This document shows, one piece after another, positions 3,001-28,199 of a stretch of DNA of 64,000 bases. This DNA comes from Candidatus Latescibacterota bacterium. Lineage in GTDB: Bacteria > Latescibacterota > UBA2968. The notes beneath the pieces were generated by a model, which worked only from the letters and a program-made list of their open reading frames with translations, did not search any database and was not told the DNA's origin. The DNA lies in NCBI GenBank assembly GCA_965116885.1, contig OZ220741.1, forward strand, positions 1,920,001 to 1,984,000. The letters run 5' to 3'. Position numbers and translations under genes: made by a program. Every line of letters begins with the position of its first letter. Position 1 is the stretch's first letter.

Positions 3001-4573
3001 GTTTAAAGAGATGGAGATGTCTTACTTTTTGGAGAAAACACAGGTGCTATTAAATCAATTGCGTGAATCTTCTCGCGGTGAGGATGCCGTATCCGGTTCT
3101 GGGATTTTATCTGTTGATCGCTGGCGCTTGCTTTACAATGTGAGCCGGGAGTTGACTACAGAGCGCGATGCCAAAGTATTATTAGATCGGATTTTGGGTA
3201 ATTTGTTAGCTGTTTATGCGGCAGAGCGAGTGCTTGTTGCGATTAAAAATGAGACCCCAAAAGGCTTTATAGTTGATGCTGTGCGCTACTACAATGTAGA
3301 AGCAGATGATGCAGAAGCACTGAGTCAGGGTATTATTCGTAGCGTTATTGAGACAAATGAACCCGTTTTGAGTATGGATGCCCAGACAGATAAAAGGCTC
3401 AATCAATATCAAAGCGTAATAGACTACCACCTCCGGTCTGTATTGTGTGTGCCCGTATTTCATTTTAACGAAGGTGTTATCGGTGCGTTATATGTAGATC
3501 ATCGCGGTATAGGCAACGCATTTTCTGAAGAAGATCAGACGTTTTTACAAGCATTTGCCAATCTGGTGGGAGTAGCGCTGGTCAATGCGAGGATGTATGC
3601 ACGAGTGGAAGAGAAAGCACAATATTTGCAGCAAGAGGTCGAAAAGCGGTACCAGCTTGGCGACATGGTCGGACAAAGTGATGCCATGCAGAGGATCTAC
3701 CAGCTGATAGAAACTGCTGCAAAGAGCGATATTCCCGTGCTTGTGCAGGGCGAAACAGGTACGGGCAAAGAATTGGCTGCGCGTGCCATACACTACAATA
3801 GCACACGCAAAGACCAGCGATTTTTGTCGCAAAATTGTGCCACACTCTCACCAGAGTTGTTGCAGAGTGAGTTGTTTGGGCACAAAAAAGGTGCGTTTAC
3901 TGGCGCGACTGAAGATCATAAGGGGATTTTTGAGGCTGCCAATGGAGGTACGGTTCTTCTCGATGAAATCGCCGATGCCCCACCGCAGTTGCAAAGGAGT
4001 TTGTTGCGAGTGTTGCAAGAAGGAGAGATTAGGCGTGTGGGAGAAACAGAGGATCGCGAAGTGGATGTGCGCATTATTGCAGCGACCAATCGAGACTTAA
4101 AAAAGGAAGTTGGGAAAGGCTCTTTCCGGGAAGATTTGTATTATCGGTTGCAGGGGATTCAGATCGATATGCCGCCTTTGCGAGAACGCATTGAAGATGT
4201 GCCAGTATTGGCCGAACATCTGCTCATTCGCGCAAAAGAAGATGCAAACAAGTCGGTTGGAGGGCTGACAGTGGGTACAATCAGGGTGCTCACAAGTTAT
4301 GACTGGCCGGGCAATGTGCGCGAGTTGAAGAACAAGATTCAACTTGCGGTGGCATTGGCAGAAGAAGAGGGTGATATTACGCCCGATTTGTTTTCAGAAA
4401 CTGTCGAGCAGGAATTTCAGGGCTATTTACAAGACCGCATCCAGGAGTATGAGAAACGGGTGATTCGAGACGCACTCGAGAAATACGAGGGCAATATTAC
4501 GCATACAGCTAAAGAACTGGGAATAACGCGCGTTGGTTTGCATAAAAAGATCAATCGTTTGGGGTTGAGATAG
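2..4573 (+). CDS. Ser/Thr protein kinase-AAA ATPase-TPR-GAF-sigma54 enhancer-binding protein fusion (5'-truncated by window edge)
   Basis: Frame is open from base 2 (NRFQHPRLVRTFAWGFAEERPYFTMEYL). Kinase motifs HRDLKPSN, DLGLA, GTAEYMSPE; Walker A GEAGVGKS; helical TPR-like middle; GAF region; sigma54 AAA+ motifs GETGTGKE, SELFGHKKGAFTGA, WPGNVREL; C-terminal Fis-type HTH. Confidence 0.95.
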   Translation, partial: NRFQHPRLVRTFAWGFAEERPYFTMEYLPGKTLEKIIVDHALLGQFRTSYFFVLMQQIVEGLAYIHAQGAVHRDLKPSNIMVLETEEGIETTILDLGLAKFRHLHSVSITQTGATLGTAEYMSPEQGKGLWVDHRSDLYSLGVILYEMFLGAPPFSGQNPVSVIMKHIRESPPPMVEAPAQTQQIVLKLLAKEPVDRYQSAEEVVQALNGVASSSFVLSDDEQRDVPLKVMRPQFVGRESEMKTLRAMLRDVQAGEQRVVLISGEAGVGKSRVVEELLGDALIHDFLCLKGAGREEGGQIYGALIDAFRGTTDLVAELPDSLETDKFSVMERWLQLLKRLRQKQPIVLCLEDIQWLDELSLEFLQYVLRDPEPCPLLLCLTCQGSNRESIPKEIENFIHGNEFSEAIRIQLKNLPREEVGYLAASMFGERSIPPDALQPLFRETGGQPLFVVEAVRTLVHADVVRQNVYGDWEWGEFPETLLSDDISEVLNRRITALSAVQRQVMEYACVFLNDFSFELLAAIWLGDELELVDVLDSLIAEGLLITYGDEERYRFSQGLYRRATYDRMQDVRRRLLHREIGNALDKMEDAEELTEELADHFAAAGEQDKAVKYMRLSGKKALKKHAYLRALRRFEAVQQADDAFESHADEIDFLCDYADVLRYCGQYNRALEFLDEAKALLPDDRNDLKARILNREGGIHSVLQHREIAEEYMLKALQLYRELGDFDGEIQALGGLAYLCDVSGRHEEAIVYMRREIEKRHMLGDPPKDVFIQGREGQAALMGFRFETAKAHLKAAVKTSQQLGLEHYRIGALNLLQRVYFYLGDLHRSEAVCKEVIGEWQKRGFIHWEAANFLWLGELALERGDFAGALEYAETSIERFLQTPRKDYIYRAYAIAATAAAKMGDTEIALEWAEKASEGTQQTSGMYTGILPLVHCGIGVALAQAGRITEAEEAFEQAIECRRESKGDHWARALLMAGEFYLQRDDVPKAQAHLKAAKQAFKEMEMSYFLEKTQVLLNQLRESSRGEDAVSGSGILSVDRWRLLYNVSRELTTERDAKVLLDRILGNLLAVYAAERVLVAIKNETPKGFIVDAVRYYNVEADDAEALSQGIIRSVIETNEPVLSMDAQTDKRLNQYQSVIDYHLRSVLCVPVFHFNEGVIGALYVDHRGIGNAFSEEDQTFLQAFANLVGVALVNARMYARVEEKAQYLQQEVEKRYQLGDMVGQSDAMQRIYQLIETAAKSDIPVLVQGETGTGKELAARAIHYNSTRKDQRFLSQNCATLSPELLQSELFGHKKGAFTGATEDHKGIFEAANGGTVLLDEIADAPPQLQRSLLRVLQEGEIRRVGETEDREVDVRIIAATNRDLKKEVGKGSFREDLYYRLQGIQIDMPPLRERIEDVPVLAEHLLIRAKEDANKSVGGLTVGTIRVLTSYDWPGNVRELKNKIQLAVALAEEEGDITPDLFSETVEQEFQGYLQDRIQEYEKRVIRDALEKYEGNITHTAKELGITRVGLHKKINRLGLR

Positions 4574-5087: not shown

Positions 5088-6539
5088 GTGTCTGGCATGA
5101 TGTGCATTCAGAAATGCGATATGCATCTTTTTCAAACTGAAGAACAAAAACAGCCGATTGTCTATCAAGTTGAGACGGGTCTGTTTTTTGAACTGGACAC
5201 CCTTTTCCAGGCGATTTTAGAGTGTTGTGAGGGTTTGTCTGTTGACCAGGTTGTTCAGGTGCTGGCCGATCAATACGAGGCAGAGGAAATTGCCGAGGCT
5301 ATTGAGGAATTGGCGCAGGTGGGTTTGATTTCGGATGGTGCATTGCCTGTGGTATCCAATGTGCCGACGACAGAAGGGGTGGCAGCCTGTGGGGTTTCGC
5401 AGACAGATCGTTTGCAGGTGTCCTTGCACGTTTCGCATACATGCAATATTCAGTGTGCTTATTGCTTTGCCCATGGCGGGGATTACGGCGGTAAGGCGAT
5501 GCTGATGCAACCGGACGTTGCCGAGCAAGCCATACGATGGATTGTCACCGAGGCTCAGGTGTTCGGACGGTGCCAGATTGATTTTTTTGGCGGGGAGCCG
5601 CTTTTGAACTTTCCATTGATGCAGGAGCTTGTCCCATTTGCCAAATCCCTGGGCGCGCGATTGGGTGTACAGGTTGGTTTTGGCATTGTGACCAATGGCA
5701 CGTTGTTGACCGACGAGATGAAGCAGTTTTTGGTCGATGAAAAGTTTCAGATTAAGGTCAGCCTGGATGGGGGGCGTAAGACACAGGATCGCATTCGCAA
5801 GTTTCACAATGGTTCTGGGACTTATGATGTTGTGGCAAAGAATGTGGAGAAACTGACTGCTGAGGCACCTGAGCGCGTGTATTTGCAGGCTGTTATGACA
5901 GCGTATGATATGGATGAGGATCAGATTGCCGATGCGTTGCGTTCATTGGGTACTGATAACGCGCTTGTTGGTCCGGCTGTCGTTTCACCGGATGCGCCCT
6001 ATGCGATTCGGGAAGAACACATACCCGTTTTGAAGCAACAAATTTACAAGCGAAGCCGACGTGCGCTCAAAGCCATTCTGAATGGTGAAGAGAGTGAAGA
6101 GTTTGATCCGAGAATTCAAAAACTTTTGACGCGTGAAAAATCTTGTCATGGATGCTTGGGTGGTAAGCAGTATCTGGCTGTTGCGGCAGATGGGTCGATT
6201 TATTTTTGTTCGAGTTTGGCCGATGCGCCCGAGTTTAAGATGGGTGATGTGTTTGCGGGTATTGATCGCGAAAAGCAGCAGCATTTTGACGCGCAGTTCA
6301 ATGTGAATAATCGGCCTGAGTGCAAGACGTGCTGGGCGCGCAACTTGTGTGGTGGTGGATGTCTTTGGGATGCGCGGACGACGACGGGTGATCCGATGTC
6401 TCCCAACCCTGTTGCTTGTGAACAGACGCGCTATCGCTATGAACTGGCGATGGAGATGTGTATGGAGATTGCAGAAACGGATGCGTCTTTGTTACAGCGA
6501 CGATATGATCTGGAAATGGCATCTGAATCGGAGAAGTAA
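5088..6539 (+). CDS. Radical SAM/SPASM-domain peptide maturase with N-terminal PqqD/RRE-like region
   Basis: CNIQCAYC motif, FFGGEPLLN, SPASM cysteines (CHGCLGG...C...CKTCWARNLCGGGC...C); ~90-aa N-terminal extension. Start could be ATG 5097 or 5100. Confidence 0.92.
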   Translation: MSGMMCIQKCDMHLFQTEEQKQPIVYQVETGLFFELDTLFQAILECCEGLSVDQVVQVLADQYEAEEIAEAIEELAQVGLISDGALPVVSNVPTTEGVAACGVSQTDRLQVSLHVSHTCNIQCAYCFAHGGDYGGKAMLMQPDVAEQAIRWIVTEAQVFGRCQIDFFGGEPLLNFPLMQELVPFAKSLGARLGVQVGFGIVTNGTLLTDEMKQFLVDEKFQIKVSLDGGRKTQDRIRKFHNGSGTYDVVAKNVEKLTAEAPERVYLQAVMTAYDMDEDQIADALRSLGTDNALVGPAVVSPDAPYAIREEHIPVLKQQIYKRSRRALKAILNGEESEEFDPRIQKLLTREKSCHGCLGGKQYLAVAADGSIYFCSSLADAPEFKMGDVFAGIDREKQQHFDAQFNVNNRPECKTCWARNLCGGGCLWDARTTTGDPMSPNPVACEQTRYRYELAMEMCMEIAETDASLLQRRYDLEMASESEK

Positions 6540-7557: not shown

Positions 7558-7575
7558 AATGAGGCAAGTCCAACC

Positions 7576-7602: not shown

Positions 7603-7670
7603 TTTTTGATTCTGGGTACTGCGTGTACTACCAACCCACCGCGACAACGTTTATGGAAGGAGAAGTAGCG

Positions 7671-9530: not shown

Positions 9531-9658
9531 TCGTTGTGACGGCGTCCAGCGGTCAGACCCGCCGGGCCCTGAAGAGAGTCCCGTCTCGATATTGAAGAAT
9601 CGGATCATAAAACTCTGTACGCGGGAGTTCGGGCGGCAAGGCGTTGTTGAGGAATGGT

Positions 9659-9708
9659 TTGGTGGCATTTTAAACCTTCTTGCTCTTAAGCGATAAAATG
9701 TCCGCCAA
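9659..9708 (+). repeat. 50-bp direct repeat, copy 2 (runs into a tandem AATGTCCGCC duplication)
   Basis: Identical to 7508-7557; AATGTCCGCC occurs twice in tandem at 9697-9716. Confidence 0.95.
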
Positions 9709-9758
9709 TGTCCGCCAAAACGGGGCAAGTCCATCATTACAGTGAAGGATGGATCAGC

Positions 9759-13326: not shown

Positions 13327-14007
13327 ATGGACAAGCAGCAAATTTTGATTGTAGATGATGAACCACTGGTAATATCAGAGCTTGTAGGATTTTTGAGAGA
13401 TGAACCTTATGAGATATTCACCGCGAGAAATGGGATAGAAGGTTTTGAAATTTTAAGAAAAGAGGAGATCGCCCTTGCCGTCGTCGAGATGAAGATAAAG
13501 GATATGGATGGAATAACGCTGTTGAAGCGTGTGAAGGAGGAGAAAATTCAAACGGTTATGCTGATCATGACAAGTTCGGGGAACATGGAATTGGGCGCGG
13601 AAGTGATCAAGGCTGGCGCAGTGAGTGTATTTGATAAACCGATAGAAAAAGATGTGTTTTTGGCGAAGGTCAAAAAATATATACCTCTGCAAGATATTTG
13701 GAAGACCTGGTTGGAATCATTTTTGGAGGCTAATTACAGCAATCCAAAGCTGAGATTTGAAGATGTCATGGGTCATTTCAGGTTCTCGGAAAGCTATGGA
13801 TATAAATTGTTTAAGAAGCACCTGGGAATGTCATTCCGGATGTGCCTTCGGAATGTACGCCTGACAAAGGCTGAGGAAGCGTTGAAGAACACATCATATA
13901 CCCTTTCAGAAATTGCTTGCCTGTGTGGGTTTGCATCTTTATCGACTTTTAGCAAGGTTTTCAAAGAGACGTATGGGGTTAGTCCGACCACATATCGAAA
14001 AAAGTAG
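13327..14007 (+). CDS. Response regulator with AraC-type HTH (atypical receiver)
   Basis: ILIVDDE receiver start, DKP; the usual phosphoacceptor position reads AVVEMK; C-terminal FKKHLG...EIACLCGFASLSTFSKVFKETYGVSPTTYRK. Confidence 0.92.
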   Translation: MDKQQILIVDDEPLVISELVGFLRDEPYEIFTARNGIEGFEILRKEEIALAVVEMKIKDMDGITLLKRVKEEKIQTVMLIMTSSGNMELGAEVIKAGAVSVFDKPIEKDVFLAKVKKYIPLQDIWKTWLESFLEANYSNPKLRFEDVMGHFRFSESYGYKLFKKHLGMSFRMCLRNVRLTKAEEALKNTSYTLSEIACLCGFASLSTFSKVFKETYGVSPTTYRKK

Positions 14008-14092
14008 CGACTGGAACAAATTTTTGCAGGTTAGGACAAACTTTCGGGCTTGGAACTTAAGAGCAATCAAATCATATTATCATCCACATCAC

Positions 14093-14143
14093 AAAAAAGC
14101 TGCCGACAGACCCTAACAGGTCGAGTGTCGGCGGTAAGCAGCA
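14093..14143 (+). repeat. Structured leader element, copy 1 (partial)
   Basis: AAAAAA-GCTGCCGACA-GACCCTAACAGGTC-GAG-TGTCGGCGGT; homologous to the other four copies. Confidence 0.85.
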
Positions 14144-18139: not shown

Positions 18140-18225
18140 AAAAGCCGCCGACAGACCCTGGCAAGTCGAATGTCGGCGGCAGACTGCAGTTCAAAGCTCA
18201 AGCATTTGGGAATGTGAGCTTGATG
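18140..18225 (+). repeat. Structured leader element, copy 2
   Basis: GCCGCCGACA-GACCCTGGCAAGTC-GAA-TGTCGGCGGC hairpin (18144-18180) plus AAGCTC-AA-GCATT-TGGG-AATGT-GAGCTT hairpin. Confidence 0.92.
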
Positions 18226-18248
18226 ATTTAAGATACCTCAGGTGCCCC

Positions 18249-19070: not shown

Positions 19071-19159
19071 TGAGTATGTCTTAAAAGGCTCGCGGCTTGT
19101 GTTCACGATTACACATTTGGTGGATAACGAGAAATTGAAGAGGTAAGCGTGCTATCATG

Positions 19160-19246
19160 AAAAAGCCGCCGACAGACCCTGGCAAGTCGAGTGTCGGCGG
19201 CAGACTGCAGTTCAAAGCTCAAGCATTTGGGAATGCGAGCTTAATG
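19160..19246 (+). repeat. Structured leader element, copy 3
   Basis: Near-identical to copy 2; first hairpin 19165-19201. Confidence 0.92.
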
Positions 19247-19304
19247 GTAAGATAGCTTTTGGTGGGTAGGTTGTCAACTATCGTGTAACTGGATATAAAA
19301 ATTT

Positions 19305-19598
19305 ATGAAGAAAAACACAGTAACAATATCTGAGATTGAGAATCAGATTCAAGGTTTGGTTCTGAAGGCATTAGACTGTGAAGCCTTATCTGATGATATA
19401 GATTGGGACAATCTTCCTCTGGCTTCTATACTCGATTCTATTTCCACTCTGGCCCTGGTGACAGGCTTAGAGGATGCATTTGATGTAATCGTAGAAGACG
19501 AAGAACTCACAGAAGAGATGCTGACTTCGACACGTTCGGTAGCACAGTATATATATGAGAAATTAACCACTGATACACATTCACTTGTTCCCGAATAG
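19305..19598 (+). CDS. Acyl carrier protein
   Basis: Acidic 97-aa protein with LDSISTLALVTGLEDAFDV; the phosphopantetheine Ser is retained. Confidence 0.85.
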   Translation: MKKNTVTISEIENQIQGLVLKALDCEALSDDIDWDNLPLASILDSISTLALVTGLEDAFDVIVEDEELTEEMLTSTRSVAQYIYEKLTTDTHSLVPE

Positions 19599-19636
19599 AT
19601 CAATACCATGAACTAAACACTGCGAGAGGTTTTTTG

Positions 19637-21541
19637 ATGGAGTATTTTTTTTCTGGGTTGACAGGTACAGGAACACGCGTAGGCGTCATTGATAGCGGTT
19701 TTAATGCAGGAAAAAAAAACGTGCATGTGTTGAATGGCACCAGTTTCTGTAATGGCGATTCCCAACCAGATTCAAAGTATAAAGATATGATAGGCCACGG
19801 CACAGCAGGTATTGGCGTCATCCACTCTAAAGCTCCCAATGCTGAATTTTTGCCTGTCAAAATTTTTGAGTCAGAGCTGATAGCGACAATGGATATTTTG
19901 TGCAAGGCGATTTACTGGTGTGTTGAACATCACTGTCACATTATCAATTTGAGTTTAGGCACTCTGGATGAGAGTAATAGCGATATTTTGAAGAATGCCT
20001 GTGATTTTGCACACAAACACCAGACGTTCATTGTTGCTGCGACATCAAATGATGGACAACCGAGTATTCCCGCGTCTTTTCCCAATGTCTTTGGCGTAGC
20101 AGGGGGAAAAGTTAATGGAAAATTTGATTACTTTTATGATCCGCACGAAAAAATACAATTTGTCGCGCGGGGTGATCGTCAACGCTTGGATTGGCTGGGA
20201 GGCAAACAGATATTTATGGGCGGGTCGAGCTTCGCGGCTCCGCATATTTCTGGCTTGATTGCTCTGATCATAGAGAAATATAATGGCATAACTTTCAACG
20301 ATCTGATAGAAATTTTGCAGAAACATTCCTTAACTCAATGTCCCAAGCTGGTAGATAGTAGCACTTATGCGATGAGCGAGATGCCCAGGTCCCGCTCAGA
20401 CGTTTCTATCCGCGATCTCAATAAGGCAAACACGCCAGGCTGGATAGAAGAGGCTGTTATTTTTCCATATAACAAAGAAATGCATGGATTGGTGCGGTTT
20501 CGGGAGTTATTGCCATTTAGACTTACAAGGGTAGTTGACGTTATTGGTAAAAGAACCATAGGCAAAGATTGTGGAAAGGTTATTGGTGGGTCCGAATCTA
20601 ATTTGATCATACAACAAAATTTGGAAGACTGCCTGCAATACGGCGATACGCTCGTTTTGGGTTATTTGGATGAAATTAGCCGGATTAAGAAACGCGATGT
20701 GTTACAAGAATCTCTGGAATTGGCATTGAAGCATAACAAGAATGTTTATAGTCTGAGTCCCATTGCAAATAAGCAATACGAAAGCATAAGCAAAGCATTT
20801 GAAGAAAAACATCTGTATTATGCAGCACCAACCATAGATTTTGCAACTTATGAGGTTTTGACCAAAACTTATGATTGGAGAAGCAGAAGCCAGAAACCTG
20901 TCGTGGGCATATTTGGGACAGGACCGCAGCAAGGCAAGTTCACTGCACAATTGGCACTGAGAAAACAATTACAAAAAATTGGCTATAAAGTTGGTCAATT
21001 GGGTACAGAACATCAATCTGCGTTATTTGATTTCGATTTTACATTTCCAAATGGATATGATGGGCATCAGAGCATCCAAATTCCCATGGATTTGCACATT
21101 CCACTTCTAAATTCCGCTATGGTCGGTATCGAACAATTAGACCCGGATATCATCGTTGTTGGCGGTCAGTCCGGTATTATACCTCATAACTTTTACGAAA
21201 AATCTCAGAGTTATACTTTGCCCTCATTGATCTTGCTTTTTGGAACCGTTCCCGATGCTTATGTCCTGCTCGTTAATTCTATCGACGAGCCTGAATTTAT
21301 ACAAGAAAATATCCGAGTATTAGAGAGCCTGGGAAAAGGAAAAGTGATTCTGCTTGTTTTTAGTGATAAGAAAAAAATTGTTAATAACACTGTTAATACA
21401 GTCGTCAACCAGCCGCTTTGTAGAGAGGAAATTTGTCAAACGATATTGACTTTGGAATCAACGCATTGCATTCCTGCGACTGAGATAATTAGCGCAGAAG
21501 GACAAAAAAAGATGGCCGATGTTGTTGTTGATTTTTTCTGA
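19637..21541 (+). CDS. S8 (subtilisin-like) peptidase fused to a DUF1611-like P-loop domain
   Basis: Catalytic triad motifs VIDSG, GHGT, GSSFAAPHISG; C-terminal half has GIFGTGPQQGKFTAQL, GTE and IIVVGGQSG; no signal peptide. Confidence 0.85.
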   Translation: MEYFFSGLTGTGTRVGVIDSGFNAGKKNVHVLNGTSFCNGDSQPDSKYKDMIGHGTAGIGVIHSKAPNAEFLPVKIFESELIATMDILCKAIYWCVEHHCHIINLSLGTLDESNSDILKNACDFAHKHQTFIVAATSNDGQPSIPASFPNVFGVAGGKVNGKFDYFYDPHEKIQFVARGDRQRLDWLGGKQIFMGGSSFAAPHISGLIALIIEKYNGITFNDLIEILQKHSLTQCPKLVDSSTYAMSEMPRSRSDVSIRDLNKANTPGWIEEAVIFPYNKEMHGLVRFRELLPFRLTRVVDVIGKRTIGKDCGKVIGGSESNLIIQQNLEDCLQYGDTLVLGYLDEISRIKKRDVLQESLELALKHNKNVYSLSPIANKQYESISKAFEEKHLYYAAPTIDFATYEVLTKTYDWRSRSQKPVVGIFGTGPQQGKFTAQLALRKQLQKIGYKVGQLGTEHQSALFDFDFTFPNGYDGHQSIQIPMDLHIPLLNSAMVGIEQLDPDIIVVGGQSGIIPHNFYEKSQSYTLPSLILLFGTVPDAYVLLVNSIDEPEFIQENIRVLESLGKGKVILLVFSDKKKIVNNTVNTVVNQPLCREEICQTILTLESTHCIPATEIISAEGQKKMADVVVDFF

Positions 21542-21572
21542 GATCAAGACCTCAAGGATAGGGAGAAAGTAA

Positions 21573-22295
21573 ATGCAAGAAATTCGGAAAATGTCGCTGA
21601 TTTTGAATATCCTGTTATCTGTTTTTCTTATGGTTGCGTTATTTGGGATATGGAAGTTGAAAAATACGAACGCTCGTCGTTGGGAGGAAATCAGAGAGCT
21701 TCGAAAAGAGAATGCAGATTATAAGGAGCACATAAATACTTCTACTTATGCATCCAATTTTCAAGGACAGGAATTTCCGAAGTTGCAATTGAAAAACATA
21801 AATGGCGATTGGATTTCAACAGACTTTTCTAAAACAGGAAAAGGATTGGTTCTGGTCTTCAAGCCGCGAGACTGTCAGCCTTGTCTAATCACCCAGATAA
21901 AGTTATTGGAGCATGTGTACCAAAATCAAGATCCCTCAAAACGCTTTCCAATTTATGCTTTTGCCAATGCTACTCCAGAAGTATTGAAAAAATTTAAAAA
22001 GAGTTTTGATCTCCATTACGAGTTGCTTCCGGATACTGAGAACAAGTTATTCGAAAATCAATTACTTACCCGTCGTACCCCTGCTATCTTTGTTGTGAAC
22101 AAACAAAATATTATAACGCATTGTCATTTGCCCTCAAAGGACCGCCCTCAAAATACAGTCCTCTTTTTTGGTGTGATTCAAAGACATTTGCCTTTGCAAA
22201 AACCACTTCTGAACGATCATCTTGAAGGAGTAACCTATTCTCAAATTATTGCCAAAGATTTTGATATTGATCCTTTATCTACATTGATGTATTGA
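21573..22295 (+). CDS. Membrane-anchored redoxin (TlpA/AhpC-like thioredoxin fold)
   Basis: N-terminal TM helix, GQEFPKLQLKNING, CQPC, TPAIFVVN. Confidence 0.75.
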   Translation: MQEIRKMSLILNILLSVFLMVALFGIWKLKNTNARRWEEIRELRKENADYKEHINTSTYASNFQGQEFPKLQLKNINGDWISTDFSKTGKGLVLVFKPRDCQPCLITQIKLLEHVYQNQDPSKRFPIYAFANATPEVLKKFKKSFDLHYELLPDTENKLFENQLLTRRTPAIFVVNKQNIITHCHLPSKDRPQNTVLFFGVIQRHLPLQKPLLNDHLEGVTYSQIIAKDFDIDPLSTLMY

Positions 22296-22339
22296 TATTT
22301 ACGAACAAGATGTGGCAGGGCAAAAAGATTGATATAAAT

Positions 22340-22422
22340 AGCCGCTGACAGGCCCTGGTGAGTCGAGTGTCGGTGGTAGGGCGCAACAGCAGTTCAAAGT
22401 CCAAGCATTTGAGAATATGAGC
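22340..22422 (+). repeat. Structured leader element, copy 4
   Basis: GCCGCTGACA-GGCCCTGGTGAGTC-GAG-TGTCGGTGGT (22341-22377) plus GCAGTTCAAAG...CAAGCATTTG segment. Confidence 0.88.
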
Positions 22423-22522
22423 ATGAGAGCCTGATTTTACTTGAAGCCCATCAAGTAAAGAGTCGCTTATACGCACGCAGGTCCATGCAGAATATGACTC
22501 AAAAAGTAAAGGAGGTGATACT

Positions 22523-22738
22523 ATGAAAGCATTGACCAAGCCGAAGAAGTTTCAGGCTATGTCTCGTATCTATGGATACGAGTTAGAATGGGATGTGGAC
22601 CCCCCGGCTGTCTGTGTCACAACAGGAAGTATCAATGTTAACGACGAGGATCCAGATAATCCTAAAGAGGAGATATACGTGTGCGAGGGTACGTGTGAAC
22701 CGTATTACGATTGCGACGTCGACAGCGACTGTGAATGA
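22523..22738 (+). CDS. Cys/acid-rich precursor peptide A (71 aa)
   Basis: Strong AAAGGAGGTGA RBS; leader MKALTKPKKFQAMSRIYGYEL shared with peptide B; core has 5 Cys. Confidence 0.88.
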   Translation: MKALTKPKKFQAMSRIYGYELEWDVDPPAVCVTTGSINVNDEDPDNPKEEIYVCEGTCEPYYDCDVDSDCE

Positions 22739-22823
22739 CCTCAATTATCAATGCCGGCTCATTTTGGTGTGAAGAGGTATTCGATTGCAACGAATGCTGA
22801 TCCGTGGCTGTCGTTTAAAAAGC

Positions 22824-22910
22824 GAGCTTGATGGGCTTCAAGTTTGGATCGGTGTTCTCGGTAAACAGGCTTGGAACACCGATCCAACGATAAATAATAA
22901 GGATTATCAT
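22824..22910 (+). repeat. Conserved 3' structured element after precursor A
   Basis: GCTTGA-TGGGCT-TCAAGT hairpin, then a 14-bp stem TTGGATCGGTGTTC/GAACACCGATCCAA; paralogous to 27321-27407. Confidence 0.88.
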
Positions 22911-22912
22911 TA

Positions 22913-24019
22913 ATGAAGAAAAAAAAATTATTGGTTTCAGTGGAGTGGCTAACACTCCTCTTTCTCATCCTTGGAGGTTGCGAAAAGAGTGCGGTTGAAA
23001 ACCAGAAAGCGGTTGAAAATCAGAAAGATGCAATCGTTCTCGATACGCAAACACAAGGAACCCATCTCTCATTGGTTGGTGATATCACGCTGGAGCTCCC
23101 AGAGGCTGGCCCCGCACTCGGTAGGGTAGGTTCTGTGACGATTGCGGAGGACTATATCATAATTTTAGATAACCTGAGAAAAAGTGTTGAAGTTTTTGAC
23201 AGAGAGGGAAACTACAAGTGGCCTATTGGCAGTCGGGGGGACGGAGTAGGCCAGTACAAGATACCGAGCGGGTCTGCTATTATACCCAATACCGACCAAA
23301 TACTGATCTACGATGGAGGTCCCATAAAAATTCTTCGTTTCTCACTCAAAGGTGAATTTATAGGGCGGGTAAGGCTATCTGAGAGACGCGCCATTAATCG
23401 TATGGTGGTTTCTGAAGGTCACAATTTCATTCATACTTATGTTGATAGAAACAGAAACGGTATGCTTTGTGTAACTTCTCTGGACACAGGTGAAGACCTC
23501 GCTAAGTTCAAAGTCTGCGAGCCTGAATATAGACGCCTATTTTTTGCTTTTAAGCGTTTTCAAGGGCTTGCTTATGACGAAGCGCGAAAAATCATATACT
23601 TTGTCCTACCGTGGGGTGGTGAGGTTGTGCGGATTGATTTGGCAACGCAGGAGTTTCTCCCTTCTCTAACTATAAATCATCCCAAATTTATCAGTCTTAA
23701 ATTAGAAGAGGACAAAACTGCAAAAAAATTATTAAAAACTAAGTTTAGTAGATTGTACGGCATGTCTCTTCTGTCTTCGGGAGATGTTTTACTCAGGTAC
23801 CTGTTCAGGGATTCATCAAACAGTACTGCGTTTATACTTTTTTCTGACCTGAGCGTGGAGCCTTATGCCCAAGAGATGAAAAATGAACTGAGATACAATA
23901 GTTTCACTTCTCAGGGGATGTCTATATATGAGTATTTATCGCCTGCCGATGACGAGGATACGAATGGTAAGATTCGTATCTATCGTCTTATCGATACTCC
24001 TGAATCCCCTACCGGCTAA
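22913..24019 (+). CDS. Beta-propeller (NHL/TolB-like) lipoprotein
   Basis: Lipobox-like LILGGC after a basic/hydrophobic N-terminus; VFDREGNYKWPIGSRGDGVGQY repeat pattern; AVENQK tandem duplication at 22991-23026. Confidence 0.75.
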   Translation: MKKKKLLVSVEWLTLLFLILGGCEKSAVENQKAVENQKDAIVLDTQTQGTHLSLVGDITLELPEAGPALGRVGSVTIAEDYIIILDNLRKSVEVFDREGNYKWPIGSRGDGVGQYKIPSGSAIIPNTDQILIYDGGPIKILRFSLKGEFIGRVRLSERRAINRMVVSEGHNFIHTYVDRNRNGMLCVTSLDTGEDLAKFKVCEPEYRRLFFAFKRFQGLAYDEARKIIYFVLPWGGEVVRIDLATQEFLPSLTINHPKFISLKLEEDKTAKKLLKTKFSRLYGMSLLSSGDVLLRYLFRDSSNSTAFILFSDLSVEPYAQEMKNELRYNSFTSQGMSIYEYLSPADDEDTNGKIRIYRLIDTPESPTG

Positions 24020-24120
24020 TAGCGAAAGTCAACTCGTTGAGCATCTCTATCATCACTATTTTCAATGATTAATCCGACGACATTTTTCACGGGTATTCTT
24101 CGTTTATATCACGGGTGAAT

Positions 24121-25890
24121 ATGAAGGACAAACAACAAGTCATATCAGCTATTTCCAATATCTCTAAGCAGAGACACGTCTTTTATCATTTTTTGAAATT
24201 TCTAAGACCGTATTGGATACACGAAAGCATTGTTTTCGTCCTCATGATTTTAGGGACCGTTAGCTCGCTGGCCTTTCCCTATATCATGAAAATTATTATT
24301 GATGACGTGTTTCCAAACAAAGATTATGAACTCTTGATATTTATTTTGCTTCTGCTCCTGGGCATTACAGTAGGCAATATCATTATTAGTTTTTGTTCAA
24401 ACTATTTATTTGCCTGGATAAAAAATCGCGTTATGCTGGATATAAGAAGCCATCTTTTTGACCACTTAATCCAGTTGCCATTGAGCTTTTATGATCGCAA
24501 TAAATCTGGGGATATTGTTTATAGAATGAGCAACGAAGTTGATAGAATACAGTCGTTTATCACTTCAAGTGCTTTGAGTCTTGTACATAGCTTGCTGACA
24601 CTCATAGGGCTTACTGTGGCTCTCTGCTGGTTGAACTGGCAGCTATTTTTGGTTTCTATTATTGTAATACCTTTTCTGGCACTCAATATTCGCTACTTCC
24701 AGCCCAAGATAAGAGATATTACGGAACGAGGACGAAAGAAAGGCTCTGAAGTTATGAGCTATTTGATTGAGCGATTTGAGACTGTCCAATTGATTCAGGT
24801 CTATAATGCCTATCATTACGAAAACAATAGATTGTGGTCGCAGCTAAATGATCTCCTGAGTATCAATATGCAAAATGTAACCTGCTCTGGAGCTATGAGG
24901 TCCATTTCGAGATTTTTAACGTCATTGACGCCTGCAATCATTCTGGGATGGGGAGGGCATAAGGTGATGTTGGGGGTTATGAGCCTGGGGGCATTGGTTG
25001 CTTTTTTGCAATACCTGTCGCGCCTTTTTGCACCATTTAGAAATCTCAACCGCCTTTATATCGCCCTCATCCGTGTATCTGTTTCAATGAAACGAGTATT
25101 CGAATTTCTCGAGATTGATGTTCAGAAAATAACAGATGGGTCTGCCGCCAGTCCGTTTTCTTTTCAAAAGGAGATTGCGTTCACCAACCTCAATTTTGGA
25201 TATAATGGACAACCCGTTTTGCAGGACTTCAGTTTAAGACTGGAGAAAGGAAAAAAATATGCTCTGGTGGGGTCAAGTGGTTGTGGCAAGAGTTCATTAG
25301 TAAATGTACTGTGTCGTTTTTATGACTTGAATACAGGTGTGATTACTATTGACCATACACCGATTACCGATATCAAGCTGTATGATCTGAGAGAGCATAT
25401 TGGTCTGGTAACCCAGGAGAATCAAGTTTTTCATGATACAATCTGGAATAATATCCGATACAGCAAGCTGGAAAGTACGCCTGAAGAAATCAATCGAGCG
25501 ATCAGCATAGCTGGTTTGAATGAATTTATTGAGAGGGCTGAAGATGGTGCGCTTACGCTTATCGGTGACCGAGGTAACACACTGTCGGCTGGACAAAGGC
25601 AGCGTATTGCTATTGCGCGTGCAATTTTGAGAGACTCGGATATTCTGATCCTGGATGAAGCTACGTCGGCACTGGATTCTGAAAGCGAAGGTGAAATTAT
25701 AGCAAATTTACAGGATCTATATGAAAATAAGACGATGATTGTGATTAGCCACAGACTCAGCACGATCCAGCAGGTAGATGAGATTATTTGCTTGGATGAG
25801 GGGAGAGTTGTGGAGCAAGGAGCACATGAGGAGTTGATGGAGAAGAAGGGGTATTATTGGCGTCTTTTTCGCAAGCAACTTATCGCATAG
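24121..25890 (+). CDS. ABC exporter, fused permease and ATPase (no C39 peptidase domain)
   Basis: TM domain, then GSSGCGKS, LSAGQRQR, ILDEATSALD, ISHRLST. Confidence 0.95.
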   Translation: MKDKQQVISAISNISKQRHVFYHFLKFLRPYWIHESIVFVLMILGTVSSLAFPYIMKIIIDDVFPNKDYELLIFILLLLLGITVGNIIISFCSNYLFAWIKNRVMLDIRSHLFDHLIQLPLSFYDRNKSGDIVYRMSNEVDRIQSFITSSALSLVHSLLTLIGLTVALCWLNWQLFLVSIIVIPFLALNIRYFQPKIRDITERGRKKGSEVMSYLIERFETVQLIQVYNAYHYENNRLWSQLNDLLSINMQNVTCSGAMRSISRFLTSLTPAIILGWGGHKVMLGVMSLGALVAFLQYLSRLFAPFRNLNRLYIALIRVSVSMKRVFEFLEIDVQKITDGSAASPFSFQKEIAFTNLNFGYNGQPVLQDFSLRLEKGKKYALVGSSGCGKSSLVNVLCRFYDLNTGVITIDHTPITDIKLYDLREHIGLVTQENQVFHDTIWNNIRYSKLESTPEEINRAISIAGLNEFIERAEDGALTLIGDRGNTLSAGQRQRIAIARAILRDSDILILDEATSALDSESEGEIIANLQDLYENKTMIVISHRLSTIQQVDEIICLDEGRVVEQGAHEELMEKKGYYWRLFRKQLIA

Positions 25891-25893
25891 GGA

Positions 25894-26403
25894 ATGGAAC
25901 TGGTGAGTTTAGAATTTCGCAATCCTGACATAAAATTAATTCTCCTGCGTGTATTGGTCATCCAAGTTTTGGGAATAGGCACAGGATTGATTTATACTGT
26001 TATTTTTAGTGAACAGCTTTTGTTCGGCGAGGTTGAAACCTCTGAAAAACAAGATGATATAACGTATGTCTCTTTAGAAGTTCTTCAAAATATAATTCAT
26101 TCGAAATCAAAAATATTACTCATCGATGGGCGTTCTGAATCTGCTTATCACAGAGGCCATATTCCAGGGGCTGTGAACATACCGTATATTCAGCGCGATT
26201 ATTTTTTTCGTCAGCTTTTGGCTGATGTTGCTCGTGAGACCCTAATAATTGTCTATTGTTCTGGCAAGAATTGTAATATCAGTGTCAAATTGGCGAGGTC
26301 TCTATCAGGGGAATTTGGATTTATACATGTTCGAGTTTTTGAGGGAGGATGGGAGGAATGGGTAAAGGGAAAAAATCCGATCCAAACGAGTTTTGACAGA
26401 TGA
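25894..26403 (+). CDS. Rhodanese-like domain protein
   Basis: IDGRS...GHIPGAVNIP, IVYCSGKNC, EGGWEEW. Confidence 0.9.
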   Translation: MELVSLEFRNPDIKLILLRVLVIQVLGIGTGLIYTVIFSEQLLFGEVETSEKQDDITYVSLEVLQNIIHSKSKILLIDGRSESAYHRGHIPGAVNIPYIQRDYFFRQLLADVARETLIIVYCSGKNCNISVKLARSLSGEFGFIHVRVFEGGWEEWVKGKNPIQTSFDR

Positions 26404-26867
26404 TTATACCTGCTAAATTAGCCTGGACAGGAACCGTAGTCCGGATATTTCTGGGACTTATTCTCGGATGGGCCGGGGTTGTAAAAATCCGTAATCCGAA
26501 AGCATTTATTGAAATTGTTAAAGCCTACAATTTGCTACCTGAGGAATTGGTCGTGCTATGGGGGATCTTCTTGCCCTGGATTGAGCTTGTGACAGGTTTA
26601 TTTTTATTTCTCGGTTTGTGGCACAGGAGTGCCGTGCTCAGTTGTTCTGGTCTCTTTTTTGTATTTGCAGCAGCCGTAGGCATTAATATTCTCCGGGGGG
26701 CAGATATCGCCTGTGGTTGTTTTGGGTTCAATGACACCAATTTGTATGTTGTGTTGTTCCAGGACCTGGTTTTCTTGCTTTGCTGTTATTTTTTGGTTTT
26801 TCTAAAATCTACACCTTATTCTCTGGACCATTGCTTTTCTACTTCTCAAAGTGGTGGACTTTCGTAA
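26400..26867 (+). CDS. MauE/DoxX-family membrane protein
   Basis: RIFLGLI...LPWIEL...GADIACGCFG. Confidence 0.88.
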   Translation: MIIPAKLAWTGTVVRIFLGLILGWAGVVKIRNPKAFIEIVKAYNLLPEELVVLWGIFLPWIELVTGLFLFLGLWHRSAVLSCSGLFFVFAAAVGINILRGADIACGCFGFNDTNLYVVLFQDLVFLLCCYFLVFLKSTPYSLDHCFSTSQSGGLS

Positions 26868-26880
26868 AGTATTCCCTGGC

Positions 26881-26979
26881 AAAAGCCGCCGACAGACCCT
26901 GGCGAGTCGAGTGTCGGTGGTAGCCCCCAGGGGTAGGTTGTAGTAGCAGTTCAAAGCGCAAGCATTTGGGAATGTGAGC
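26881..26979 (+). repeat. Structured leader element, copy 5
   Basis: GCCGCCGACA-GACCCTGGCGAGTC-GAG-TGTCGGTGGT (26885-26921), a short insertion, then the second conserved segment. Confidence 0.9.
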
Positions 26980-27083
26980 GTGAGAGCATGCATGGTTTTA
27001 CTTGAAGCCCATCAAGTAAGGTGCCTCTTATATGCACGCATATTCATGCAGGATATGACTGAAAAAGTAAAGGAGGTGATACT

Positions 27084-27284
27084 ATGAAAGCTTTGACCAA
27101 GCCGGAGAAGTTTCGATCTATGTCTCGTATCTATGGATATGAGCTACCAGATGATATAATAGGATATCAATGTGAATTTCAAGGCTATACCGATATTGTC
27201 GTAGATGGTGTGGTCGTTGGTCAAACGGAAGATTGGGACTGCGTGAGTGTAGTTGATGAGATATTCGATTGCGACGGCTGCTAA
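27084..27284 (+). CDS. Cys/acid-rich precursor peptide B (66 aa)
   Basis: Same RBS and leader (MKALTKPEKFRSMSRIYGYEL) as peptide A; core has 4 Cys and ends DCDGC. Confidence 0.88.
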   Translation: MKALTKPEKFRSMSRIYGYELPDDIIGYQCEFQGYTDIVVDGVVVGQTEDWDCVSVVDEIFDCDGC

Positions 27285-27320
27285 TCCGTGGCTCTCGTTG
27301 AAAAACTAAGGTGTGCTACT

Positions 27321-27407
27321 GAGCTTGATGGGTTTCAAGTTTGGATCGGTGTTCTCGGTAAACAGGCTGGGGATACCGATCCAACGATAATAGTAAGGAT
27401 TATCATT
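27321..27407 (+). repeat. Conserved 3' structured element after precursor B
   Basis: Paralog of 22824-22910; the stem substitutions create G-U pairs. Confidence 0.88.
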
Positions 27408-27545
27408 GGGGATGGCGTAGGCCAGTTGAAGATTGCGATATTCTCGTATCGGAACCGTGTCTTTTATGATACATCAAAAGGACAATCCAATGAACAAGGC
27501 GATATGTAGTTGGCCTGAATTTGATATCGAAGAAGAATTGAACAG

Positions 27546-28199
27546 ATGATTGTGAATGATAGGTTTAAGAGGATCGTTAGGACGATTTTGTGCAAAGTAT
27601 TTAGTCAAGGTATCATTTTTTTAATTTTGATTTTTGGGGGAAGCGGAGTAGTTGCCATTTATGCTTATCCCTTTTTTGCGATAAGTAAACCACTACATGG
27701 CGACATTATGGTCGTAGAAGGATGGTTGCGTGGTGAAGAACTAAGATCGGCATTACAGATTTACAGAGCTGGCAAATACTCTCAGATTGTCGTGACTGGA
27801 GGTCATTTCGCCTATAGCACTGCAACAACTCTTGCCTCAGAATGGCAAATTGATCCCGACCGCGTCAAGGTGGCTGTTCGCGACATGCCGAATGGGAAGT
27901 TTGAGCGAGATCGCACATTTAATTCCGCATTAGGACTTCGTCACTGGCTACTCGAGGCGAATCAAAAAGAAAAAAAAGTTGATATAGTTACGAGAGGTCA
28001 TCATGCCAGGCGTTCGTTTATTTTATTTAAAACCGCCCTTGATGGCGTGGCACAAGTAGGCGTTATAGCTGTTTCCCCCTATAACTACGATCCTGATTAC
28101 TGGTATGATTCAAGTGCAGGGTTCAGGTCGGTTATAGGTGAAATCATCGCCTACATTTATGTAAAACTTATTTTCACTCCTGAGTTTCCCAAAATATAG
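27546..28199 (+). CDS. YdcF/ElyC (DUF218)-like protein
   Basis: N-terminal TM, VVEGW, VVTGG, RTFNSA, HARRS, VIGEIIAYIY. Confidence 0.8.
   Translation: MIVNDRFKRIVRTILCKVFSQGIIFLILIFGGSGVVAIYAYPFFAISKPLHGDIMVVEGWLRGEELRSALQIYRAGKYSQIVVTGGHFAYSTATTLASEWQIDPDRVKVAVRDMPNGKFERDRTFNSALGLRHWLLEANQKEKKVDIVTRGHHARRSFILFKTALDGVAQVGVIAVSPYNYDPDYWYDSSAGFRSVIGEIIAYIYVKLIFTPEFPKI

Follow-up and report, generated by a model that had tools for sequence, protein, structure and literature searches.

A family of leader-bearing, cysteine-containing acidic peptides and its putative maturation and export genes in Candidatus Latescibacterota

Genes at the locus

We analyzed a window of 64,000 nt (the whole stretch of DNA under study) from a Ca. 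Latescibacterota bacterium. The locus is embedded among polysaccharide (exopolysaccharide) genes, and all features given below lie on the plus strand. It holds two small peptide genes together with co-oriented genes for an acyl carrier protein (ACP), an S8-DUF1611 fusion, a redoxin, a beta-propeller, an ABC exporter, a rhodanese, and a MauE/DoxX protein. The sequence-only reading of this DNA had described these neighbors, including the CxxC motif of the redoxin and the lack of a C39 domain in the exporter, and all of them were confirmed. We likewise confirmed its observation of two small ORFs with a common ribosome-binding site and leader and divergent Cys- and acid-rich cores. Precursor A (22523..22738; 71 aa) consists of a 21-aa leader ending in IYGYEL and an acidic core of 50 aa with 5 Cys and 16 Asp/Glu residues, and precursor B (27084..27284; 66 aa) has the same type of leader with a different acidic core of 45 aa, which contains 4 Cys and 12 Asp/Glu residues and carries a C-terminal Cys. 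The two leaders share 18 of their 21 residues. Besides, 25 bases through the ATG are identical in the two genes (AAAAAGTAAAGGAGGTGATACTATG), and they include a strong Shine-Dalgarno sequence at a spacing of 5 nt from the ATG.

The fusion protein (19634..21541) has neither a signal peptide nor a prodomain. Residues 1 to 240 form a QhpE-like subtilisin, and residues from about 270 to 635 make up a DUF1611/TIGR04066-like module that is complete, has two domains, and contains a P-loop. Pfam assigned 83 bits to the S8 domain and 37.7 bits to DUF1611 (PF07755), the latter above the gathering score of 25. The scores against the QhpE protease model (142.4 bits; cutoff, 165) and against TIGR04066 (120.2 bits; E, 9.7e-35; curated cutoff, 200) were below the cutoffs, the TIGR04066 match spanning fusion residues 273 to 522 and profile positions 2 to 245 of 361. 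The nearest named ESM-Atlas cluster of the C-terminal half is "TIGR04066 family peptide maturation system protein." The catalytic triad (D20, H55, and S199) is invariant in 25 sequences, and the P-loop residues of the module (G179, T180, Q183, Q184, G185, and K186) are invariant as well. Foldseek matched the module to 2g0t and 2obn (E, 1e-15 to 1e-12) and to the N-acetyltransferase DgcN (7xrj; E, 1e-12), the last being a distant relationship with 15% identity and TM of 0.57 to 0.65.

The ACP (19305..19598) was recognized by weak ACP matches and a DSI motif with Ser45; its score against PP-binding was 18.1 bits, below the cutoff of 20.8, with the serine of the DS motif present. Ser45 is invariant in all 13 ACPs adjoining related fusions, and in 13 of 16 related loci with full-length fusions, an ACP gene is found no more than about 5 kb from the fusion. 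An acyl-ACP loading enzyme is absent from the block.

The redoxin (21573..22295) is an AhpC/TSA-type protein of the thioredoxin fold with a CQPC motif and an N-terminal membrane helix; NCBIfam returned no MauD match for it and only weak matches to ResA and thiol peroxidase. It is kept beside the fusion in six related loci (L001, L002, L003, L007, L010, and L018). The next protein (22913..24019) is, by Pfam and predicted structure, a DUF5128 lipoprotein with an LGGC lipobox and a six-bladed NHL-type beta-propeller (model pLDDT, 73), the best fold matches of which were the Brat NHL domain (E, 3e-13) and Bacteroides BF0058; its gene was also found in L001, L002, L007, and L010. The half-size ABC exporter (24115..25890; ABC_membrane and ABC_tran) is MsbA-like and lacks a C39 domain, and it scored 474 bits against the MsbA model, missing the cutoff of 602. 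It is followed by a rhodanese-domain protein with an N-terminal membrane helix (25894..26403; domain matches) and a MauE/DoxX membrane protein with a CGC motif (26400..26867), which scored 86.7 bits against MauE (PF07291), above the gathering score of 27. Pairing of DoxX with rhodanese in thiol-redox chemistry is a known accessory arrangement. A DUF218 membrane protein (27546..28199) has homologues of 83% and 80% identity in L001 and L002, respectively, and is syntenic in close relatives only.

Upstream, a response regulator with an AraC-type HTH (13327..14007) is a likely cluster regulator by synteny, since the ACP gene of L001 is immediately preceded by an 82% homologue and a 42% homologue occupies the same place in L002. 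A conserved intergenic module 5' of the ACP gene (19154..19251) occurs in five copies in the window, and the other four begin at 14088, 18133, 22330, and 26874. Its hairpin has 13 pairs, in which one-sided changes (8 cells) always lead to G-U on the plus strand and none is broken. This response regulator and the repeated module probably drive expression.

The precursor family and its cassettes

A profile search of 1.84 billion representative proteins yielded 37 matches, 35 of which were 37 to 84 aa long, and the leader was present in all 27 sequences fetched from these matches. The leader profile matched precursor A with an E value of 5.6e-19, and one representative (P0244) was identical to it. 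In a word-based search, 19 of 19 returned proteins had the leader, and the pattern MK.L.KP...IYGY was found in every one of the 46 relatives inspected. The family cores are hypervariable and acidic, with one invariant Cys-x(8-10)-Cys pair, usually with an aromatic residue just before it; in an alignment of 21 sequences (A4), this pair (C53/C63 of precursor B) was invariant. Hence, the family of small genes shows the constant leader and variable core that characterize RiPPs, as had been proposed from the sequence, and predicted genes for a leader peptidase and an exporter adjoin the precursors. Precursors A and B are genuine members of this leader-plus-variable-core family. Neither of them matched any NCBIfam or Pfam model at E ≤ 1, and therefore neither matched TIGR04065, the presence of which in the library release is unconfirmed. 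The family is real and unannotated, and its members are predicted to be secreted, acidic, Cys-containing peptides.

The two precursor cassettes are homologous at the DNA level in their flanks only (26881-27146 versus 22337-22585, 81% over 266 nt; 27254-27407 versus 22770-22911, 83% over 155 nt). Each precursor gene is followed by a strong double stem-loop, at 22824..22893 for precursor A (-34.2 kcal/mol; z, -7.0; no U-tract) and at 27321..27390 for precursor B (-37.3 kcal/mol; z, -5.5). Past the stop codon of precursor A lies an out-of-frame relic of a B-type precursor C terminus (..EEVFDCNEC*; 22770..22821; repeat D6), and 3' of precursor B lies a relic of the propeller gene (27408..27438; repeat D7; 84.6% over 26 nt; E, 0.001).

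Related loci and the radical SAM enzyme

The two closest related loci (L001 and L002) come from Ca. Latescibacterota MAGs, and both have the order regulator, ACP, fusion, redoxin, precursor, propeller, ABC, rhodanese, and MauE. Leader-type ORFs accompany the fusion in both, so that the expected co-occurrence of leader homologues with the fusion, ACP, and redox/export genes holds in these close relatives. The distant L010 has one co-oriented cluster of a sigma54 activator, a radical SAM enzyme (rSAM), a propeller, a leader-like ORF, a redoxin, an ABC protein, a rhodanese, the fusion, and an ACP. L020 and L022, which are spirochaete loci, have an rSAM and an ACP-like gene followed by tandem leader-sharing Cys-rich ORFs (about 10 and 7, respectively), then an ABC gene, and then the fusion. 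A leave-one-locus-out leader test recovered the window, L001, and L002 (E, 4e-5 to 7e-4) but no others; E values for the remaining nine loci were 0.2 to 82, at or worse than the best background match (E, 0.15 to 5.7), and in four of the nine the candidate ORF was never returned. The leader resemblance across phyla is not significant.

The sequence-only reading had stated that the block has no maturase. This is true within the block, but an rSAM/SPASM enzyme of a thioether-forming clade by profile scores, a candidate distant maturase, is encoded at 5088..6539, and a relative is integral to the L010 cluster. It might be the essential maturase of a QhpC-like (ranthipeptide) route, linking the sulfur of Cys to side-chain carbons of Asp/Glu while the peptide still bears its leader and before the subtilisin cut and ABC export, so that thioethers, not disulfides, would define the product. 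The highest scores of the enzyme are those against models of thioether formers (SCIFF, 266 bits; QhpD, 252.7 bits; PapB, 228 bits), several homologues have a PqqD/RRE domain, and the cores are rich in Cys and Asp/Glu. Furthermore, L010 has a 53% homologue of the rSAM and, adjoining it, a 56% homologue of the Ser/Thr kinase-AAA-TPR-GAF-sigma54 activator at 74..4573, a candidate regulator of the rSAM operon, beside equivalent redox, export, and fusion genes. Exactly this logic operates in the QHNDH pathway, in which the leader is removed by a cytoplasmic subtilisin before ABC export (PMC7876137).

However, all rSAM scores fall below the cutoffs (425, 453, and 340 bits for these three models; CcpM [TIGR04068], 170 of 500 bits). 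A SCIFF/ranthipeptide assignment calls for a maturase above cutoff with an adjacent precursor, whereas the rSAM gene lies 12.8 kb upstream of the ACP gene, with unrelated genes between, and 16 to 21 kb from the twin precursors. It is also preceded by its own small ORF and a sigma54-like site (4816-4830). An rSAM is near the fusion in only 4 of 16 loci, and none occurs in L001 or L002 over 8.5 kb of upstream and 10 kb of downstream sequence; therefore, the rSAM step is optional at best. We consider this route possible, though rather doubtful.

QHNDH gamma-subunit maturation (QhpC/D/E/F; PMC7876137) offers a further comparison. Both systems have a signal-less cytoplasmic subtilisin for the leader of a Cys- and Asp/Glu-containing peptide (predicted by sequence in the window), an rSAM making Cys-to-Asp/Glu thioethers (only a candidate in the window), a C39-less ABC exporter, and an AraC-type regulator. 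In contrast, the window lacks QhpA, QhpB, and QhpG genes, its cores are hypervariable, its proteins score below cutoff on the QhpE and QhpD models, and its protease additionally carries a DUF1611 module and is accompanied by an ACP.

Relation to known systems and a putative route

The sequence-only reading had linked the locus to clostridial CLI_3235-type systems. In the SacP23/CLI_3235 cluster, an ABC transporter, a TIGR04068 rSAM, a TIGR04066 protein, a TIGR04069 ACP-like protein, and a subtilisin-like protease are encoded by separate genes, and the cluster of Paenibacillus polymyxa #23 yields an active peptide product (PMC10731318). The likeness extends to a short leader with a Cys-rich core (TIGR04065 being the precursor model there), to the clustering of a TIGR04066/DUF1611-like protein with an ACP-type protein, a subtilisin-like protease, and an ABC exporter, and to an associated thioether-type or SPASM rSAM. 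This parts list, the TIGR04066 match, and the Atlas cluster support the relationship, while the curated models that had been suggested for checking it do not: TIGR04066 was matched below cutoff, TIGR04065 not at all, and TIGR04069 (cutoff, 70) had no NCBIfam match to the ACP at E ≤ 1. The window also differs in that its protease and TIGR04066-like module are one polypeptide, its precursors, ACP, and rSAM miss the curated models, its cores are acidic, and its rSAM is distant. It adds a periplasmic redoxin, a rhodanese, MauE, and an NHL lipoprotein, and its host belongs to a diderm lineage. The earlier interpretation is thus partly supported, and the locus is best read as a CLI_3235/SacP23-type Cys-rich peptide system in Gram-negative form, equipped with helpers for thiol redox in the periplasm.

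A substrate other than peptides is conceivable for the fusion and the ACP, because the locus lies in polysaccharide genes and some related fusions are found among sugar-modifying genes (in L008, those for a sugar aminotransferase, an epimerase, and a GNAT protein). They would then act on, e.g., a lipid or glycan of the surrounding locus, and the peptides would be secreted unmodified and disulfide-bonded. The MsbA-like exporter is compatible with this, as is the fact that the locus misses every curated CLI_3235-, Qhp-, and SCIFF-type family cutoff. We regard it as improbable, however, given that leader-type ORFs occur with the fusion in both close loci, tandem precursor arrays adjoin it in L020 and L022, equivalent parts are found in the SacP23 peptide cluster (PMC10731318), and a protease without a signal peptide must find its peptide substrate in the cytoplasm.

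On balance, we lean toward RiPP-type maturation and export of this uncharacterized family. In the cytoplasm, the QhpE-like subtilisin domain of the fusion would recognize and remove the leader, and the DUF1611/DgcN-like P-loop module and the phosphopantetheinyl ACP would add an ACP-dependent modification, for which acyl transfer to the peptide is our best guess. The thioether-type rSAM may first add Cys-to-Asp/Glu links, as QhpD does for QhpC. The MsbA-like exporter would carry the product over the inner membrane. Thiols would be handled on the periplasmic side by the membrane-anchored CxxC redoxin, the rhodanese, MauE/DoxX, and the NHL propeller lipoprotein, which would most likely join the two conserved Cys residues in a disulfide-closed ring. 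We infer both the acylation and the type of cross-link from gene content.

The redox genes also resemble MauE/MauD of methylamine dehydrogenase (MADH), where a MauE-family membrane protein beside a thioredoxin-fold protein assists a small, Cys-rich exported polypeptide; six disulfides are present in the MADH small subunit (PMC7876137), whereas the window has no MADH genes. Instead of being free natural products, the peptides might belong to a periplasmic protein, as its small cross-linked subunits or as ligands, with the propeller lipoprotein as partner, like the Cys-rich small subunits of MADH and QHNDH. A precursor adjoins the propeller in the window, L001, L002, L007, and L010, the aromatic residue and Cys pair are conserved, and dehydrogenase-type maturation systems are the source of the MauE, QhpE-like, and QhpD-like parts. 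Against this, the cores are hypervariable and differ even within the window, the propeller fold matches are generic binding domains, and a Pfam scan of 49 window ORFs revealed no QhpA/QhpB, dehydrogenase, or cytochrome subunit. Such a role seems unlikely, and RiPP-type maturation and export is the reading we favor.

The DUF1611 module shares with DgcN the two-domain fold and the P-loop, but DgcN is a free-standing enzyme, whereas the module of the window is part of a protease fusion and has an ACP as its partner. DgcN, the sole characterized relative of the module, acts on a free amino acid.

The precursor peptides and their cassettes

Both small ORFs that the sequence-only reading had picked out as twin precursors were confirmed (precursor A, 22523-22738; precursor B, 27084-27284), as were the features ascribed to them. 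The two leaders agree at 18 of 21 residues, and the 25 bases through the ATG, containing the Shine-Dalgarno sequence AAGGAGGTGA, are identical in A and B. The cores are divergent as described: A has 5 Cys and 16 Asp/Glu in 50 residues, and B has 4 Cys and 12 Asp/Glu in 45. At the DNA level, likeness between the cassettes is confined to the flanks, with an 81% match over 266 nt in the 5' region and leader and an 83% match over 155 nt in the 3' region.

A word-based search with precursor B recovered 19 proteins, all of which had the leader MKALTKPEKF..S.IYGYE and 18 of which had a C-terminal Cys. We then ran the profile of an alignment of 21 precursor sequences against 1.84 billion representatives, obtaining 37 matches at E ≤ 0.001 (12 at E ≤ 1e-10), of which 35 were 37 to 84 aa long and aligned from residue 1. 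Among the 27 new matches fetched, MK.L..[KP/S]...IYGY was present in every sequence and IYGYE in 25. In the alignment the leader is invariant, and the acidic core is hypervariable except for two invariant Cys residues 8 to 10 residues apart (C53 and C63 of precursor B), with Tyr or Trp usually two residues ahead of the first. No Pfam or NCBIfam model matched the precursors, even at E ≤ 1. Judged from these alignments, the precursor peptides are a real family.

The fusion protein and its relatives

The fusion of a signal-less subtilisin with a DUF1611 domain (19634-21541) was borne out: the protein begins right at the catalytic Asp region, without a signal peptide or prodomain. Its N-terminal 240 residues are a subtilisin with QhpE as the top curated match (142 bits versus a cutoff of 165). 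Residues D20, H55, and S199, which we take from general S8-family knowledge to be the catalytic triad, were invariant in 25 fusion homologues. Residues 273 to 522 match TIGR04066 (120 bits; cutoff, 200), and the 19 C-terminal halves compared all share the P-loop G-T-x-x-Q-Q-G-K. The predicted model of residues 250 to 635 (pLDDT, 84.9; pTM, 0.86) matched the DUF1611 structural-genomics proteins 2g0t and 2obn (E, 1e-15 to 1e-12; TM, 0.62 to 0.75) and 7xrj, deposited as "N-acetyltransferase DgcN" (E, 1e-12; TM, 0.57/0.65). The nearest named ESM-Atlas cluster to the DUF1611 half was "TIGR04066 family peptide maturation system protein" (score, 0.97), and a PDB sequence search with the C-terminal half returned 2g0t alone (E, 0.003). 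From the fold and Atlas matches, therefore, the C-terminal half is a complete DUF1611 enzyme module. The sole characterised relative of this half, DgcN, is an acyl-group transferase. DgcN uses acetyl-CoA.

The ACP beside the fusion (19305-19598) has a DSI motif, and the ACP serine was invariant in all 13 ACPs near related fusions. The other assignments in the block (19160-27407) also held. The redoxin has a CQPC motif and one N-terminal membrane helix, and the rhodanese likewise has an N-terminal membrane helix. The lipoprotein propeller has a lipobox, and its model is an NHL-type six-bladed propeller (pLDDT, 73) with the Brat NHL domain (E, 3e-13) and the Bacteroides exported protein BF0058 as top fold matches. 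The ABC exporter is MsbA-like and lacks a C39 domain, and the MauE protein passes the Pfam cutoff.

A word-based search for the fusion gave 234 clusters at E ≤ 1e-3, and a genome scan with the fusion alignment confirmed 272 stretches as relatives, S8-only matches included. The scan yielded 79 loci, of which 16 with a full-length fusion ORF were examined (L001-L004, L006-L008, L010-L014, L017, L018, L020, and L022), the ORFs scanned there being selected, mostly on the + strand, and at least 70 aa long. An ACP lay within about 5 kb of the fusion in 13 of the 16 loci, a thioredoxin-fold protein lay near it in 6, a rhodanese, a DUF5128 propeller, and a radical SAM enzyme in 4 each, and MauE in 3. 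The S8-DUF1611 fusion with an ACP is a widespread module.

The closest loci, L001 and L002 (90% identity), come from MAGs titled Ca. Latescibacterota and have the order AraC-type response regulator, ACP, fusion, redoxin, one precursor, propeller, ABC, rhodanese, MauE, and DUF218. Their leaders have diverged (MKILTKPEKS..IYGYE and MKSLIKPVKF..IYGYE). Both have an FtsX-type permease, L001 has an IS element, and housekeeping genes lie upstream. In L010 (38% identity), all genes are on one strand, in the order sigma54 activator, radical SAM enzyme, propeller, an ORF with MNLLRKP..LIYAYE, redoxin, ABC, rhodanese, fusion, and ACP. L007 (38% identity) has redoxin, propeller, a small ORF, ABC, rhodanese, HTH, fusion, and ACP. 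The spirochaete loci L020 and L022 have a radical SAM enzyme, an ACP-like gene, tandem Cys-rich ORFs (about 10 and 7, respectively, with their own shared leader), ABC, and fusion.

A second type of locus (L004, L006, L013, L015, and L018) has HlyD, TPR/C39-like or Rce1-like proteins, and a BtrH_N-like protein. The last, about 350 aa long and with a weak match to BtrH_N (ACP-dependent acyltransferase-like), follows right after the ACP (L004, 12147-13187; L006, 12105-13169; L013, 12169-13224; L015, 11528-12589; L018, 9663-10769). Candidate substrates in these loci are longer acidic proteins without Cys, a hint that the fusion family has ACP-linked transfer, not cysteine chemistry, as its common denominator. 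L015 (7976-11209), from the same genome as L001, is a third fusion copy, in which a transposase insertion separates the S8 and DUF1611 parts. ORF 30222-31331 of the window, which has a weak DUF4872 match, was considered as a BtrH_N-like counterpart and left out of the system because it showed no BLAST similarity to the proteins of these five loci. S8-only loci of Firmicutes and others were rejected as CcpM clusters, being ordinary secreted proteases in housekeeping contexts; TIGR04066, TIGR04068, and TIGR04069 had no match among 34 selected ORFs of eight S8-only loci (L028, L030, L031, L033-L036, and L049).

Small ORFs beside distant fusions have, as judged by eye, L-x-K-P ... Y-x-x-E in common. 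A leave-one-locus-out leader test recovered the window, L001, and L002 only (E, 4e-5 to 7e-4). For the remaining nine loci, E values were 0.2 to 82, at or worse than the best background (E, 0.15 to 5.7), and the search missed the candidate ORF altogether in four of these. Because the test failed for these nine loci, the cross-phylum likeness lacks statistical support; we abandoned the cross-phylum profile and treat L.KP...Y..E, the wider motif, as no more than a resemblance seen by eye. The association of peptide and fusion in distant loci thus rests on position and tandem arrays. As a linkage proxy, a precursor and a fusion were each found on contigs of 5,875,595 nt and 25,259 nt, and a radical SAM fragment and a fusion each on a contig of 3,527 nt; both were set aside as suggestive only.

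The radical SAM enzyme, known systems, and a possible pathway

The sequence-only reading had found no maturase in the block. Indeed, there is none inside 19160-27407, but a radical SAM/SPASM enzyme is encoded at 5088-6539. Its top curated matches are thioether formers, all scoring under the cutoff (bits/cutoff: SCIFF, 266/425; nif11, 253/519; QhpD, 253/453; PapB, 228/340; CcpM, 170/500), and several of its homologues have a PqqD-type recognition domain. The enzyme and the sigma54 activator (74-4573) are tied to the system because both have counterparts inside the L010 cluster (53% and 56% identity, respectively). Judging by L001 and L002, the block can do without a nearby radical SAM enzyme, and we consider its participation rather doubtful.

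Directly upstream of the radical SAM gene, ORF 4871-5068 encodes a 65-aa peptide with a DDDDDWDDFD tail and a single Cys. This ORF might supply the enzyme with a precursor of its own. It has no counterpart in L010 and was set aside. A single sigma54-like site, AGGCACGGTTCTTGC, precedes it at 4816-4830. A sigma54 promoter scan of the whole window gave 53 matches versus 62 expected by chance, none of them upstream of the precursors, and of these only 4816-4830 deserves mention. Downstream of the radical SAM gene, 6543-11510 encodes a 302-aa protein with a methyltransferase-like GSG motif and no family match, a 635-aa tyrosinase-domain protein, and a 600-aa patatin-like protein. The latter two genes are preceded by copies of a 63-nt sequence (7495-7557 and 9646-9708; 95% identical), which suggests that they may be co-regulated.

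Among described systems, the CLI_3235/SacP23 cluster of Paenibacillus polymyxa comes closest. As outlined in one report (PMC10731318), the SacP23 precursor has a 19-aa leader and a 42-aa Cys-rich core, and its cluster includes an ABC transporter, a TIGR04068 radical SAM enzyme, a TIGR04066 protein, a TIGR04069 ACP-related protein, and a separate subtilisin-like protease. Cloning of the eight-gene cluster yielded a peptide that withstood heat, was sensitive to protease, and acted against Gram-positive bacteria, and in that account an immunity role for the TIGR04066 protein is only a guess (PMC10731318). Judged from its genes, the window locus is predicted to work like this system and like QHNDH maturation, although none of the curated membership tests of the two placed it in either. 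It differs in its gene fusion, acidic cores, periplasmic redox set, and distant radical SAM enzyme.

Text searches of the literature outside subscription journals found no functional study of the S8-DUF1611/ACP module and no paper on this gene architecture. Text searches for DUF1611 returned two unrelated papers only, and those for TIGR04066 only genome-mining tables and the SacP23 paper (PMC10731318). Three papers contain one of the TIGR numbers, one of these also mentions CLI_3235, and the other papers listed matched CcpM only, in an unrelated sense. A search for a RiPP with acyl carrier protein, subtilisin, leader peptide, and radical SAM gave only a review, and ranthipeptide combined with subtilisin, ABC transporter, and acyl carrier gave no paper. 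By title and abstract, the matches listed for Latescibacter with RiPP and radical SAM concerned BGC or natural-product genome mining only.

The precursors form a family, the gene set is conserved, the catalytic motifs are intact, and folds have been assigned; on this basis we can outline a possible pathway. By analogy with the Qhp pathway, the signal-less QhpE-like subtilisin would cut off the leader in the cytoplasm, and the ABC exporter without C39 would move the product out; for QhpC, leader removal by QhpE and export by QhpF are described in PMC7876137. As family knowledge suggests, the CxxC redoxin, the rhodanese, and the MauE/DoxX protein probably face the periplasm and manage the thiols of the exported peptide. 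According to the same source, MauE is among the accessory proteins of methylamine dehydrogenase, the small subunit of which has six disulfides (PMC7876137). The DgcN-like module and the ACP might pass an acyl group to the peptide. A more specific version, to which we assign a low probability, is a two-step fusion: the subtilisin half would remove the leader and the DgcN-like half would acylate the exposed N terminus from the neighbouring ACP, giving ribosomal lipopeptides that the MsbA-like exporter flips out and that periplasmic thiol enzymes lock by a disulfide ring. If true, this would be ACP-dependent tailoring chemistry of a new type, and the same chemistry would account for the TIGR04066/TIGR04069 pair of Firmicute Cys-rich bacteriocin clusters.

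The locus offers a well-defined test case: its leader is defined, it has two natural cores and a fused enzyme, and the ACP serine is invariant. Chemistry solved here would assign a function to the unexplained genes in a bacteriocin cluster with anti-staphylococcal activity; besides, it would add a peptide class from an uncultured phylum and a lead for product discovery.

Locus history and repeated elements

Between the AraC-type response regulator gene (13327-14007) and the ACP gene, the window has 5.3 kb of sugar genes, whereas this interval is 170 nt in L001. They comprise two UDP-glucose dehydrogenase-family genes, one DUF354 gene, and one sulfotransferase gene. At the 3' end of the second UDP-glucose dehydrogenase-family ORF, 18081-18133 is an 87% copy of part of the regulator gene (13847-13899). 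A relic of the 3' end of the regulator gene (repeat D7) precedes the copy of an intergenic module at 18133. The regulator copy points to insertion of the sugar genes by duplication of the regulator-ACP junction.

The intergenic module, of about 95 nt, has five copies in the window (14088-14143, 18133-18230, 19154-19251, 22330-22433, and 26874-26990), located ahead of the ACP operon, each of the two precursor genes, and the sugar-gene insertion; in the relatives it lies between regulator and ACP (L001, 9338-9507; L002, 9499-9714). It starts with an A-run and a 13-pair hairpin, in which one side was altered in 8 cells, each giving G-U on the + strand, with 0 pairs broken and no pair altered on both sides. 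Sequence comparison thus provides weak evidence that the module fits a sense-strand RNA element, and the copies may have a common role as a regulatory or RNA element. No Rfam family matched anywhere in the window, the module included, and neither the sigma70 nor the terminator scan exceeded the shuffled expectation.

Downstream of precursor A is an out-of-frame relic of a B-type C terminus (EEVFDCNEC), and downstream of precursor B is a 26-nt relic of the propeller gene. These relics thus indicate that the second cassette is a duplicated precursor-propeller segment, with the cores swapped between conserved flanks. A double stem-loop without a U-tract lies 3' of each precursor (A, -34.2 kcal/mol, z = -7.0; B, -37.3 kcal/mol, z = -5.5), and the 5' untranslated regions of the precursors folded no better than shuffled sequences. 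Both 5' untranslated regions contain the 16-nt CTTGAAGCCCATCAAG (22437-22459 and 26997-27019), the reverse complement of which occurs shortly past the coding regions (22824-22847 and 27321-27344, the copy downstream of B having one substitution). These copies could each form a local hairpin or pair with each other across the whole mRNA. Finally, the right-hand third of the window (41797-63732) has a higher G+C content (about 0.52 to 0.56) and densely encodes sulfatases, fucosidases, PhyH-type dioxygenases, and a GH32 enzyme; it is a sulfated-glycan degradation region unconnected with the peptide locus.
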